Positions 34,183-38,434 of a stretch of 43,066 bases of DNA are shown here, piece after piece. How positions within the stretch are numbered: position 1 is the stretch's first letter; each line of letters opens with the position of its first letter. Location of the stretch: assembly GCF_011745625.1 (NCBI RefSeq), contig NW_027191457.1:1116001-1159066 (forward strand), written 5' to 3'. This DNA is from Cladosporium halotolerans (taxonomy: Eukaryota). The notes beneath the pieces were generated by a model. That model was not told the DNA's origin and did not search any database. It saw nothing but the letters and a program-made list of their open reading frames with translations. The position numbers were made by a program, and so were the translations under genes.

Positions 34183-34726
34183 CTTTGTTGTGTCCTCGAG
34201 GCGTGTGACGCTTTTGGACGTCCTCCTTTTGCAGTGTGACGAGCAGAGATATGTTGGAGGGCCGGACGGGACAAATGGCTATTATATCTGGAAAAGCTAC
34301 TAGGGTGTGTGTCGAGGTTGCTACAATAGGAAGCGTGCGCGCTCTTGCTTGATGGCAGGCAGTGTTGTCACGGCCATGATGTGCCAAAGGCGTGTTGTTG
34401 GCGCAGCTGTCGCAAGAGCGTCCCGATGAGGCAAAGATCGGTGAAGGATTCATGTCAGCACAGCCCTGTCGGCGAAACCGAGCCACCGGCGTGCTGCTAG
34501 CCTAATTAAGGGCTCCTTGCGCTCGCGCCTTGCGTCCTGTCATGATTTCAGAAGTCTGTTATTGAAAATCGGCTGCTTTCAGAACTTTTCTTAGCAAGTC
34601 GATGCGACCGGAGCTCTACATGCATGTAACAGCCCTCCGATGCTGTGCTCGGAAGCTTTGTGGAGTGATCGCTCTGCCGCTTTTCCCAATTATCTATATT
34701 GTAGAAATTTGATTTCACTCAATAAT

Positions 34727-34820
34727 GCATTGGTGGTTTAGTGGTAAAATTGGCCGTTGCCATCGAGATATTCTACTTCCGATTGTCGGCCAGCCCCGGG
34801 TTCGATTCCCGGCCGATGCA
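34727..34820 (+). tRNA. tRNA-Gly(GCC) with a 23-nt intron (34763-34785)
   Basis: Acceptor stem GCATTGG/CCGATGC plus A, D-arm TGGTTTAGTGGTAAAA, anticodon stem GGCCG/CGGCC with GCC at 34759-34761, T-arm CCGGGTTCGATTCCCGG, followed by TTTT. Confidence 0.97.
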
Positions 34821-35302
34821 TTTTGCCCTGCATTTTGCTCTGCGATTGATTTGGACCCAGCTTTTTACCGCGTCTGATGCAGTGAACAATTGCAATATTC
34901 AGCCTGCGCCTTCCCTTCACCATACATCGGTAAATCAACGGCGCTTCAACCCCCGTCGACAATGGCAGCTTAATCCCCGAGGCTACCCTTTTCCGATACA
35001 AGGACTCGGAAGCGGCCGTGCTGCATGAAGCCGGCAACTCACCTAGCCCACGTTTTGTGCTCCAGCACGTTGTACCTTCACTAAGGTAGTGTCAAAAGCT
35101 TGTCCCGCCAGCGACACCCATTCTAAATCTCTCAGCGATACTTCAAGGATGAGCGTGCCACCCTTGTCTCAGACAAACATCGCGTGACGCTCTAGCCGCC
35201 GATGATCGCGTTCGTGAAGCACGTCCTCAGCGCTTTGCGTAGAGCATTCGCAGCTGCTCCAACACGGTGATACTGCCCATCATCCATACACTCTCGTAGG
35301 CC

Positions 35303-36483
35303 ATGCCTCGCCGTCTCCCTGAAGAAGACATGGCGCAGATCCATCGCAAGATCTTCACTCTCAACAAGACTGCCGTCGAAATCGGTGAAGAGCACAACTG
35401 CACCGCCAGCGCTGTGCGTAAATGGCGCCAGAACTGGATCGCCTATGGCACCCATCGAAAGCCTGGCCGAGTGACCCTCAAGAAACGCGGTCGCCCTCGA
35501 AAACTCGCCGAAGAGCAAGAAGCTGAGATTGTCGCCTATCGCGCTGAGCACCCGGACATGTACTTCAAAGATGTCGCGTCCTTTTTCTCTGAGAAATTCG
35601 GGACAGAGCTCTCCGGCAGCGCCATCTTCTCCACGTTGGGCCGCCGCGGTGTGCTACAGAACAAGAAGACCGCGCGGCCGCGGCATAAGGATTTCATCCG
35701 GTATCTCGAAGAGCCTGACTTTCTCTCTCCTCGCCTGCGATTCGACTTGTCCCTTCTCCCGGACGTTCTGTGCCGGCGAGTGTTGCAATTGCAACGCGAT
35801 GACGGCACTGCCGTGCTTTCTCTAGCGCGGCTAGGTGCCGCTGAGGCAGTGGGCCACGGCACTGATCTACGGCAGGCGCGCAGGCTCCTCAAAGCACCTA
35901 GCACCGAGAACGTGCGATTCACGGAGAAAGTCGGCGTCTACGGCGGGAATGAGATGCTGGGGCCGGACGGGTTCGATGTCGTGTACATGGCGATTGGCAC
36001 GCTAGGCCGCGAGAAGGATCTGCTTCTCTGGGCGAAGACAGTGGCTAAACTTTTGAGGCCCGGTGGGAGTCTATTCCTGAGAGAGAAGCATCCTATTGTG
36101 GATGCTGTTGACGAGAATCATAGAAATCGGGTGATGATTACAAAGCCTTACTTTCGGAATCTGGGCCGAATCGCGGCTGTGAGCGCCGAAGATAATTCAT
36201 TCACGGAGACCGAGGCTTGCCCGGAGAGGCAGTATAGTGTTGGTGAGATCATCGGGGCCGTCGCTGCAGCAGGATTGATGATCACGAGTCTATCCGAGCA
36301 TAACAGTGTGCCTTGGGAATTTTGAAAAGAGCAGATGGCCGAGGTAGAAAACGGTACGTGTCTTTCCGGCGTGTGAGGCCTCTCGGAGCAAGTGACTGAC
36401 GGACAGATGCAGAAGAATGGGTGTTCAAACATGGGCGTAACCGGCTGCCACTGTCCTATACTTTGCACGCCATGAAAGTGTAG
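35303..36483 (+). CDS. chimeric gene: Tc1/IS630-type transposase HTH DNA-binding region fused to a degenerate class I SAM-methyltransferase-like domain; in-frame TGA at 36323
   Basis: About aa 1-120: bipartite HTH with KRGRPRKL linker and HPDMYF. About aa 135-340: DFLSPRLRFD...LSLARLGA...FDVVY...WAKTVAKLLRPGGSLFLREKHP...EHNSVPWE. The frame continues past the TGA via an intron (36354 to 36406 or 36412) to EWVFKHGRNRLPLSYTLHAMKV. Confidence 0.72.
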
Positions 36484-37981
36484 CCGCTGTCCCTTCACGA
36501 GAACACTCGCTTCACCGGGCTGAATGTATGACGCCTACAGCCCTGAAGTACGGAACGGGACTCATCGAAAGCAAGGACCACAAACCGAAATTGCTGCTCT
36601 TCATCTGATGCGATTCGTGCCATCGCAGGCAGAGCAGCTGGATTTCTCACTCGGTTTGCACGCGTCCTATCACTGGTGTCGTGCTGAAACCGGGAGTGCG
36701 CTTTCTCTTTACTTCACAAAAGCTGCTCGACATGGCCTACGAAGCTCAGCACGTGGATGAAAGTCTGCGGCAAGTCCTTCTGCAATGCTAGGTTTACTCA
36801 GGCGGCAGCTGCAAGTACCCTCAGCCGCCAAGCGCTAAACGAGAGGCTACTGATCCTTCATCCTTCGCTCAAATCAAGTGGTCATTAGTCGTCCTCTTGT
36901 CTATACGATGCTGCCGTTTGCTGCCCTCGCCGTCTTGTGTTGAGCAACAGCAACGGATGCCATTCGCTGATGAATAACCCCAAACCGCATCATCTCCTTG
37001 GGATTTGGCGCACTTGTCGCGTGTCGGTAGCCCGGTCAAATCGCGGAGCGTTATGCTCCTGCTAGCGGCATCTTGAGTGCTGCTGGATTTCTCCCAGAAA
37101 AGGAGACCATGATTGGAAGGTTGGCACGAAATCTTCTGGCGCAAGTACCGACGATGACATTGGCGGTGTGCAATTCCGCACGGAGACAGCTGCGAATAAG
37201 GATCTTCGCCATGCGACCGTATATTCCTTGCACGCTTTACTGCTACCGCCACACCTTTGCCACGGAGTGCCCTATCTGAAAAGGACAAGCAGAGCACAGG
37301 ACAGCTCCTGAAACCTCCGGAGTGACAGCTCAGCCGCCATAAGGTCCGGGCAGAGTGTAGTGGGGGCGTGCCGCCTCCACCTTGATTGCACACATGAGTC
37401 GCGGAGGCTTCAGCGGAGCCGGCGAGCTGACACTTCCGAGGACTTCGCGACACCCAGATTTGTTCAGGAAGCCATGAACCGTTCGATGTTTGTCGGAAGC
37501 GTACAGTGACTGCCAAGGCAGCATGAGACCTGCTAATATCAGTTCAGCTTCTACCTGAATATGTTTATTGCTGCATCGCCTTGTCTCTTGCTTCAATGTC
37601 CCCGATAGGTTCCATTTGGGCCACGAATTTTTGCACACGCCAAACGGTGTCTGACATTATTCATCTCCCTATCACACATTGCGCCATGAACGATTAGCAG
37701 CAAGGGCTTAGCGCGGTATCTCGGTCGTCCTTGCAATAGACGTCAAGCGACCACACTGCCTAAAAATACCGCTTTTGAAATACGAGCCTAGCCCTGGGTG
37801 TGGGTCTACAATGTAGATCAGTGCTTTGGATCGTGCTTTCCTGAGGATACTACAAATATCACCACTGTTACAACCCTGATCTCATTGCACAACACAATTT
37901 TCAGACAGCACCCTTCGAGCTCTTTTCCCAGTTTCCGACCAACAAGAAAGCAAACACACTGAACACGAAAACGAATTCAAG

Positions 37982-38434
37982 ATGCGCCAATTCCTGTACT
38001 CTATCATTGCCGTGGCAGGCCTCACATCTGCCAACCCTGTGCAGAACGACTTTGCTTGCAACCCGGCTCACTCTTACCCCAACGGAGCCTCCTGTATCTC
38101 TACCGCCGGTGCCTTGAGCCTGGTGACACCGACACCCTCCGCAACCTTTGCTTGCAACCCTGCGCACTCTTACCCGAACGGCGCTCAGTGCGTCTCTACC
38201 GACGGAGCACTCACCCTCGTCACTCCCGCGGCCTCCACCACTTTCGCTTGCAATCCGGCACACTCCTACCCCAACGGCGCTCGGTGCGTTTCTACCGCTG
38301 GCTCGCTCACGCTCATTACGCCGAGTGCTTCGGCCACTTTCGCCTGCAACCCTGCTCACTCCTACCCGAACGGCGCTCAGTGCGTCTCGACTGCTGGCTC
38401 GCTTGCACTCGTCACTCCCAAGCCTACCAACTGA
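37982..38434 (+). CDS. small secreted cysteine-containing tandem-repeat protein (150 aa)
   Basis: Signal peptide MRQFLYSIIAVAGLTSA followed by four 32-aa repeats FACNPAHSYPNGAxCxSTxGxLxLxTP. Confidence 0.88.
   Translation: MRQFLYSIIAVAGLTSANPVQNDFACNPAHSYPNGASCISTAGALSLVTPTPSATFACNPAHSYPNGAQCVSTDGALTLVTPAASTTFACNPAHSYPNGARCVSTAGSLTLITPSASATFACNPAHSYPNGAQCVSTAGSLALVTPKPTN
38051..38431 (+). repeat. coding tandem repeat, 4 x 96 bp (last unit slightly short)
   Basis: Units start at 38051, 38147, 38243 and 38339. Many differences fall at synonymous positions. Confidence 0.9.

Follow-up and report, generated by a model that had tools for sequence, protein, structure and literature searches.

New DNA-binding proteins are known to arise when host genes fuse with transposases, and to our knowledge nearly all documented cases come from animals. 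SETMAR combines an N-terminal SET methyltransferase with a whole, retained Hsmar1 mariner transposase. Vertebrate fusions that captured the DNA-binding domain of a transposase are described by Cosby et al. (10.1101/2020.05.07.082677), and an N-terminal Tc1/mariner helix-turn-helix (HTH) is reported for the Caenorhabditis F-box A2 family (PMC12062965). Here we describe what would be a fungal example of a host-transposase fusion at an early or failing stage. It is encoded in a stretch of 43,066 nucleotides (nt) from Cladosporium halotolerans (assembly GCF_011745625.1, contig NW_027191457.1, positions 1,116,001 to 1,159,066 of the forward strand), hereafter called the window, and starts at position 35303. 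On the basis of sequence homology, the gene is a chimera in which a degenerate methyltransferase fold follows a transposase DNA-binding module in the same reading frame, with loss of mobility. We hold, with moderate confidence, that the copy in the window is a recently disabled allele of a young host-transposase fusion, which is being lost in this genome.

Like the host-transposase fusions described before, the gene has a Tc1/mariner-type HTH region, lacks the DDE catalytic domain and continues in frame into an unrelated host domain; its HTH region stands N-terminally, as in the F-box A2 proteins. It differs from those fusions in its partner, which has a bacterial-type enzyme fold, in its junction, which lies within a single exon and is not formed by splicing, and in the truncation of the allele. 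Both SETMAR and the window gene place a methyltransferase-type domain and a DNA-binding domain of the mariner/Tc1 superfamily in one protein. However, the methyltransferase part of the window gene is of the Rossmann-fold class I type, C-terminal and apparently inactive, and only an HTH pair represents the transposase. In the literature, searched mostly through listings and the openings of abstracts, no description was found of an HTH-methyltransferase fusion or of the Cladosporium HTH-GNAT gene that serves as comparator below.

The N-terminal DNA-binding module

The open reading frame (ORF) at 35303..36325 comprises 340 codons from its ATG and is preceded, three codons upstream, by an in-frame TAG (35297-35299); like all features of the gene given below, it lies on the plus strand (+). 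A preliminary description of the window had reported this ORF and likened its N-terminus to that of a Tc1/IS630-like transposase, and several comparisons agree with that assignment. Pfam HTH_32 matches amino acids (aa) 38-108 with 33.8 bits (cut-off 33.7), and the NCBIfam IS630 transposase model aligns to aa 22-125 with its positions 13-118 of 299 (E 1.4e-9; 37.9 bits, below the family cut-off of 100). Amino acids 1 to ~120 share 32-34% identity with the N-termini of the DDE_3 transposases P0137, P0197 and P0198; these relatives have the D-81-D-34-E spacing, and P0198 reaches 104 bits on DDE_3. When a profile of four N-termini was compared with longer proteins, 14 matches were obtained, comprising 11 HTH-GNAT proteins (one of them named Cladosporium inversicolor), the two DDE_3 transposases P0197 and P0198, and the methyltransferase fusion P0001. 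The methyltransferase fusion, the HTH-GNAT proteins and the transposases have the start motif MPxxLP at residue 1 in common, and the three groups diverge at about residue 120; the N-terminus of the window protein shares 32-40% identity with the others. Judged by these alignments, a fungal Tc1-type DD34E (Pfam DDE_3) transposase contributed aa 1 to ~120, which comprise its native start and its entire two-part HTH domain. A sequence search of the PDB with the N-terminus stayed at chance level (best E 0.56), and P0001 was the sole match among 123 candidates in a word-index search with aa 1-140.

An AlphaFold2 model of the N-terminus, based on 18 sequences and of moderate confidence (mean pLDDT 74.3), contains two three-helix bundles, with helices at 7-18, 24-30 and 35-48 and then at 70-82, 88-99 and 105-114, and between them a disordered basic GRPRK linker. 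The first HTH subdomain (HTH1; aa 7-48, 35321..35446) retains the recognition-helix motif RKWRQNW. It is followed by the linker (aa 49-69, 35447..35509), delimited by column conservation and low pLDDT, and by a strongly diverged second subdomain (HTH2; aa 70-114, 35510..35644), which was placed by the modelled helices together with the column comparison. The best Foldseek matches over both subdomains were Pax paired domains and Tc3 (6pax, 1k78, 1pdn, 1u78; E 2.7e-3 to 2.1e-2, probability 0.99-1.00), namely Pax-6 (E 2.7e-3), the Tc3 bipartite domain (5.8e-3), Pax5 and Paired, while the SETMAR DNA-binding domain (PDB 7s03) took rank 19 and had a VIA-align Z of 5.7. For the Pax and Tc3 structures VIA-align gave Z scores of 6.7-7.3 over 102-114 residues at 15-20% sequence identity, which are rated as middling, as a Z below 8 may reflect a common arrangement. 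Since these values are middling, the structural matches are consistent with the transposase assignment, and the sequence homology to DDE_3 transposases carries the claim.

The two subdomains have fared differently. The window protein keeps 27 of the 47 columns that are conserved in both the GNAT-fusion and the transposase groups, with 24/31 in HTH1 and linker and 3/16 in HTH2 (Fisher p 1.7e-4 for this split, which was chosen post hoc). Conservation over the three groups of relatives includes K61, G63, R64, P65 and R66. In HTH2 (35510-35644), the 13 family-conserved positions out of 16 that are gone include the W and the R of the recognition helix. If DNA is still bound, the specificity would probably be provided by HTH1 alone or be altered.

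No remains of a mobile element were detected apart from this module, in agreement with the preliminary description, which had reported neither a DDE domain nor terminal inverted repeats. Pfam gave no DDE_3 match in the ORF, and the four transposases P0137, P0197, P0198 and P0216 matched the whole window in tblastn with their HTH parts only, at 35303-35674, without any DDE remnant. A second copy of the region within the window was not found, nor was a convincing pair of terminal inverted repeats. One weak inverted pair brackets the gene (35294-35324 and 36712-36742; 31 nt, 71% complementarity, a 12-nt perfect core), with a left arm that runs across the start codon. Chance probably accounts for this pair, since by rough arithmetic ~0.2 such 12-nt cores are expected per 2.8 kb. 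Without its catalytic DDE domain and without transposon ends, the element is immobile.

The methyltransferase-like domain

In a first homologue search, 22 proteins were retained at E <= 1e-3 among 8000 candidates. Twenty-one of them are class I S-adenosylmethionine (SAM) methyltransferases with 28-43% identity over aa ~130-340, one being named after Nocardia jejuensis, and the remaining one is P0001 with 96% identity. The model of aa 121-340 found methyltransferases in the same way, with 189 PDB chains matching at E <= 1e-3 and all of those listed being methyltransferases; the best fold matches were the small-molecule/peptide methyltransferases 3bkw, 3g5l, CypM, XrdM and ToxA. Both results support the class I methyltransferase-like continuation that had been proposed for the ORF, and in the model the Rossmann-like fold is retained. 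The bacterial HLQCHIG/GLDFS methyltransferases (e.g. P0002) have the same fold, are 36-43% identical over ~210 residues and, with the intron of the window gene taken out, are collinear to the very C-terminus. Unlike these enzymes, the window protein lacks the N-terminal ~12-25 residues and has lost 8 of the 30 in-span columns with at least 90% conservation, and it has the HTH extension and an intron in its gene.

When 12 proteins were compared with the window by tblastn, the switch from transposase to methyltransferase homology could be narrowed to a junction zone at 35645..35699. The last base with transposase homology is 35674, and methyltransferase homology begins between 35645 and 35699, depending on the query, where the bacterial homologues start aligning with their residues 12-40. 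It appears from these alignments that ~12-25 N-terminal methyltransferase residues were replaced and no more, and by homology and fold the domain without these residues extends over 35700..36322. Since the junction lies inside one continuous exon, exon shuffling by splicing, which had been suggested as one possible origin of the fusion, is not indicated.

Within the domain, several of the most conserved residues are altered. Conservation was counted over 97 homologues of 255-310 aa from P0002-P0171, with shorter and longer proteins and four N-terminal or self hits excluded. Of the 33 columns with at least 90% conservation, the window protein keeps 22 and its relative P0172 (see below) 24, whereas the bacterial proteins keep 95% on average and 76% at minimum (n = 87). 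Three of the 11 losses fall outside the retained span, and the eight in-span losses are G157C, H162Q, C165R, H166D, the Asp and Ser of GLDFS, W236R and Y300F. Alignments confirmed the motif replacements named in the preliminary description. Motif I (aa 162-171, 35786..35815) is degraded and reads QLQRDDGTAV for HLQCHIGTDT of the family, owing to H162Q, C165R (in the window only), H166D and D170A, and the GLDFS of the family is GHGTD in the window and is accompanied by a 5-residue deletion (GLDFSxxS) adjacent to the ribose-binding acidic residue. Mapping to PDB 1wzn assigns motif I to aa 162-168 and the end of beta-2 to GLD. In addition, WLP at 236-238 is replaced by REK. Pfam methyltransferase families stay below threshold for the window protein (Methyltransf_12 16 bits vs 30; Methyltransf_23 12 vs 27) and also for P0172 (19.2 vs 27); among the bacterial relatives, P0002 exceeds the threshold of four such families and P0025 that of three. 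NCBIfam gave no family for this part, and a PDB sequence search with it reached chance level only (best E 0.034). The motif changes suggest that SAM binding and methyl transfer have been lost.

The retained class I fold and the conserved core parts LLRPGG, HP and FD.VY would also be expected of an active SAM methyltransferase that is aimed at DNA or chromatin by the HTH pair, as an analogue of SETMAR. The conserved acidic residue after beta-2 may even survive as D188, which takes this position in one of three alignments, the other two having a gap there. However, the four changes in motif I, the deletion at GLDFS and the REK at 236-238 strike the motifs, no profile scores above threshold, the window allele has no last strand, and the bacterial relatives resemble small-molecule/peptide methyltransferases and not those acting on DNA or histones. 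We therefore regard an active enzyme as very improbable.

The nearest named or typed relatives of the methyltransferase part are bacterial, although only one of the 22 is named. A horizontal transfer from bacteria is conceivable, although bacterial nearest relatives do not in themselves attest to one and the intron points to a long stay in the host.

Gene structure and premature stop

The ORF boundaries given in the preliminary description were correct, but the 340 codons are the first exon of a longer two-exon gene, cut short by a premature stop. We consider the gene to be truncated because methyltransferase homology crosses the in-frame TGA (36323..36325) and restarts beyond a GT-AG intron. 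In tblastn, bacterial homologues align through the TGA (P0004 to 36352, P0025 to 36355) and again from 36415. With aa 285 at 36355 and aa 286 at 36415, P0025 is collinear over the intron and loses no residue. The putative ancestral tail of the first exon (36326..36353) encodes KEQMAEVEN plus 1 nt, is in frame and is still homologous to methyltransferases. The predicted spliceosomal intron at 36354..36412 has a length of 59 nt, or alternatively of 53 nt if it ends at 36406 as in the NCBI model, and shows GTACGT at its 5' end, CTGAC near its 3' end and a CAG acceptor. The last exon (36413..36483, with TAG at 36481-36483) carries the conserved C-terminal strand of the family (RLPLSYTL-type motif).

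The TGA thus cuts the frame ahead of the last 33-35 codons. In class I methyltransferases, the C-terminal strand bridges beta-5 and beta-6. The last beta-strand in the core sheet should accordingly come from the final exon, and since this exon lies past the TGA, the ORF as it stands would be without that strand. When the truncated domain is modelled, no strand appears at the expected place of beta-6, since the partner of beta-6 is encoded past the TGA.

A public gene model exists for the locus. P0023, 'hypothetical protein WHR41_02737 [Cladosporium halotolerans]' with 183 aa, is 100% identical to the window in four blocks. The model runs from 35330 to 36483 of the window and removes 35414-35875 (462 nt; HTH2 and motif I) and 36243-36328 (86 nt) as introns. 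Since the relatives have homologous coding sequence in place of both segments, and the TGA falls within the second, the model was apparently shaped by avoidance of the stop and looks artefactual. Regarded by itself, the copy in the window belongs to a common kind of truncated gene that probably has no function, and its practical value is the correction of an annotation in which homologous coding sequence is dropped to dodge a stop.

Distribution of the fusion

A HMMER search of 1.84 billion representatives yielded 1001 matches at E <= 1e-3, 150 of which were listed. Among these 150, the methyltransferase part only was matched by 145 proteins and the N-terminal part only (aa 1-149 or 1-123) by three, P0137 with DDE_3 and the GNAT fusions P0040 and P0079. 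Both parts were matched by P0001 and P0023 only, at 96-97% identity. The full-length form of P0001 is P0172 (357 aa), which is present on 30 contigs (the longest of 231 kb) and has the same junction. The fusion is hence not unique to this assembly; uniqueness, together with lack of transcription and neutral evolution, had been named in the preliminary description as grounds against it. A more distant carrier of the fusion was found neither among the listed matches nor in JGI metagenome contigs, where a scan with the ORF gave 142 pattern matches, none of them confirmed, and a scan with the HTH profile gave 453 pattern matches and 11 loci, none of which encodes an HTH-methyltransferase. An exact look-up of the ORF itself and of nine neighbouring ORFs of the window found 0/10 in the collection.

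If the ORF were an artefact of assembly or annotation, composed of misjoined pieces or open by chance, the identical junction would not be expected in independently assembled contigs of other origin (P0001, P0172; 30 contigs), nor significant homologues for both halves. We give such an artefact hardly any credence.

P0172 is 96% identical to the window protein and has a Leu codon in place of the TGA. It is this in-frame TGA, at a position where a 96%-identical relative has Leu, that leads us to regard the window copy as recently disabled. Fifteen differences separate the two over 350 codons. Two of them, G157C and C165R, are changes of the window lineage at family-invariant methyltransferase sites, A248T is a change of the relative at a conserved position, and one is the nonsense codon. 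In a neutral simulation of substitutions on the ORF, in which indels were ignored, the whole ORF at 4% aa divergence was open in 54% of the runs and had acquired a stop in 46%. Since one stop in 15 differences is close to this neutral expectation, the pattern fits relaxed constraint.

A domesticated relative in Cladosporium

The HTH-GNAT proteins (P0040, P0188-P0196; metagenome loci L001-L011) provide a comparator with the same HTH module. One of them is annotated as 'hypothetical protein [Cladosporium inversicolor]', and the name given by JGI is 'L-amino acid N-acyltransferase YncA/transposase'. All 11 loci found with the HTH profile are of this kind (11/11), eight with full intronless ORFs of 476 codons and three running off the contig end. 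The proteins join a transposase-type HTH pair to a GNAT acetyltransferase and also contain another HTH-like stretch. Their HTH pair shares 34-41% identity with aa 1-120 of the window protein, and their GNAT part passes the Pfam thresholds. The ratio of non-synonymous to synonymous substitution rates (dN/dS) was determined for six full-length loci (15 pairs) and amounted to 0.00-0.07 for the HTH part (11 pairs, the other 4 being saturated in dS) and 0.02-0.09 for the GNAT part (15/15 pairs). The flanks were collinear in the three locus pairs compared.

From these features, HTH-GNAT has the look of a host-transposase fusion that was genuinely domesticated and whose enzyme domain is apparently intact. 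The purifying selection and synteny show that the HTH module was domesticated at least once in Cladosporium, which makes domestication of the methyltransferase fusion plausible, without demonstrating it. The HTH-GNAT gene and the window gene have in common the HTH family, the start motif, the break from transposase homology at ~aa 120 and a partner of the small-molecule enzyme type. In contrast to the window gene, HTH-GNAT is intact, syntenic and under strong purifying selection, and its branch in the tree of the N-termini is shorter (0.36 substitutions/site, vs 1.13 for the HTH-methyltransferase, the longest branch, and 0.52 for the transposases). The pair of HTH-methyltransferase and HTH-GNAT could show what separates fusions that are kept from those that are lost.

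Decay or domestication

We propose that a gene confined to the Cladosporium lineage arose when a transposase HTH pair with its native start was joined in frame, at about codon 125, to a bacterial-type methyltransferase devoid of its first ~12-25 residues. The methyltransferase has lost invariant residues at the SAM pocket and kept the fold, and would be catalytically inert. Subsequently, the TGA would have disabled the window allele, turning it into an incipient pseudogene of a young fusion. The intact protein of the relatives, if made, would be a DNA-binding protein carrying an inert methyltransferase-like domain. In the preliminary description, domestication to a DNA-targeted pseudo-methyltransferase or ligand-sensing regulator had been considered. 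The chimeric fusion behind this proposal stands, but the TGA, the changes G157C and C165R, and the retention of only 3/16 columns in HTH2 speak against a working regulator in this genome.

Several observations weigh against decay as the main feature of this gene. HTH1 and the GRPR linker are well retained, as the 24/31 columns indicate, and the fold of the methyltransferase part is confidently predicted (pLDDT 84.5, pTM 0.83, 71 sequences). A concentration of the methyltransferase losses in the SAM-binding half, where 10/20 columns are kept vs 17/22 in the remainder, is unsupported (p = 0.11, not significant). The GC content at the three codon positions is host-like in the HTH half (0.60/0.44/0.68) as well as in the methyltransferase half (0.64/0.43/0.63) and in both halves jointly (0.63/0.44/0.64), compared to 0.62/0.45/0.63 in SRP72 and 0.49/0.54/0.57 in flanking intergenic DNA, and neither half looks like the product of prolonged neutral decay. 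Although the gene has diverged far from both of its parent families, 340-357 codons have been kept as an open frame. In the simulation, the frame remained open in 13-20% of the runs for the methyltransferase part at 20-25% aa divergence and in ~10% for the HTH part at 40%. Since an open frame rarely survives simulated neutral divergence, wholly neutral divergence is unlikely. Much of the divergence probably arose under selection for an intact protein, and this could predate the fusion. That a gene of bacterial type contains an intron suggests that it has long resided and been expressed in its host, the sister fusion HTH-GNAT is clearly functional, and the TGA itself could be an assembly error or a strain polymorphism. 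To call an open frame next to impossible under neutral decay would be too strong, as 6-20% of the simulated runs, with indels ignored, keep it at 20-25% aa divergence.

These observations would fit a fusion that is domesticated and working here too, with the HTH targeting DNA and the inert methyltransferase acting as a module that senses a ligand or mediates dimerisation. In that case the TGA would be an assembly error, a tolerated truncation, or spliced out as in the NCBI model. Such a reading can point to the intact frame of the relative on 30 contigs, to the retained recognition helix of HTH1, to confident fold predictions for both domains, to the domestication of the same HTH family in the syntenic HTH-GNAT gene (dN/dS 0.00-0.09) and to the annotation of a gene at this locus by NCBI (P0023). 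However, the window does not contain the intact reading frame of a domesticated fusion, as it has TGA where the relative has Leu, and the truncation removes a conserved C-terminal strand. Moreover, the introns of P0023 (462 nt and 86 nt) are homologous coding sequence and apparently bypass the stop, the window lineage has changed at invariant sites, HTH2 is strongly diverged, and the fusion is confined to two closely related clusters among the matches listed. Weighing both sides, we consider a working fusion in the window possible but rather doubtful, and prefer the recently disabled allele.

A related scenario leaves the window allele as a recent loss and places the function in its relatives. 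Cladosporium would have captured one Tc1-type HTH module at least twice, once with GNAT and once with the methyltransferase, and the HTH-methyltransferase of the relatives would be a working one-component-like regulator, whose inert pocket senses a SAM-related or other small-molecule ligand and signals to the HTH pair. We regard this scenario as unlikely, although conceivable.

Genomic context

A tRNA gene with a 23-nt intron is located at 34727..34820 on the plus strand (+), 482 nt upstream of the ATG, consistent with the distance of ~480 bp reported before (Rfam RF00005, 47.7 bits, E 3.4e-8). ARAGORN finds it at 34726-34821 if introns are allowed and reports none by default. The program calls Asn(att) with the intron at 33/34; by our own reading, an intron at the canonical position 37/38 would give the anticodon GCC (Gly). 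The gene content marks the window as fungal, in that other long ORFs encode a Zn2Cys6/Fungal_trans factor, SRP72, a TMP-TENI plus hydroxyethylthiazole-kinase protein, an amine oxidase and an ABC transporter. An ORF of 150 codons at 37982-38434 (+) has no Pfam family above threshold. It has a hydrophobic, signal-peptide-like start and four tandem repeats of ~31 residues, each with ACNPAHSYPNGA and a second Cys.

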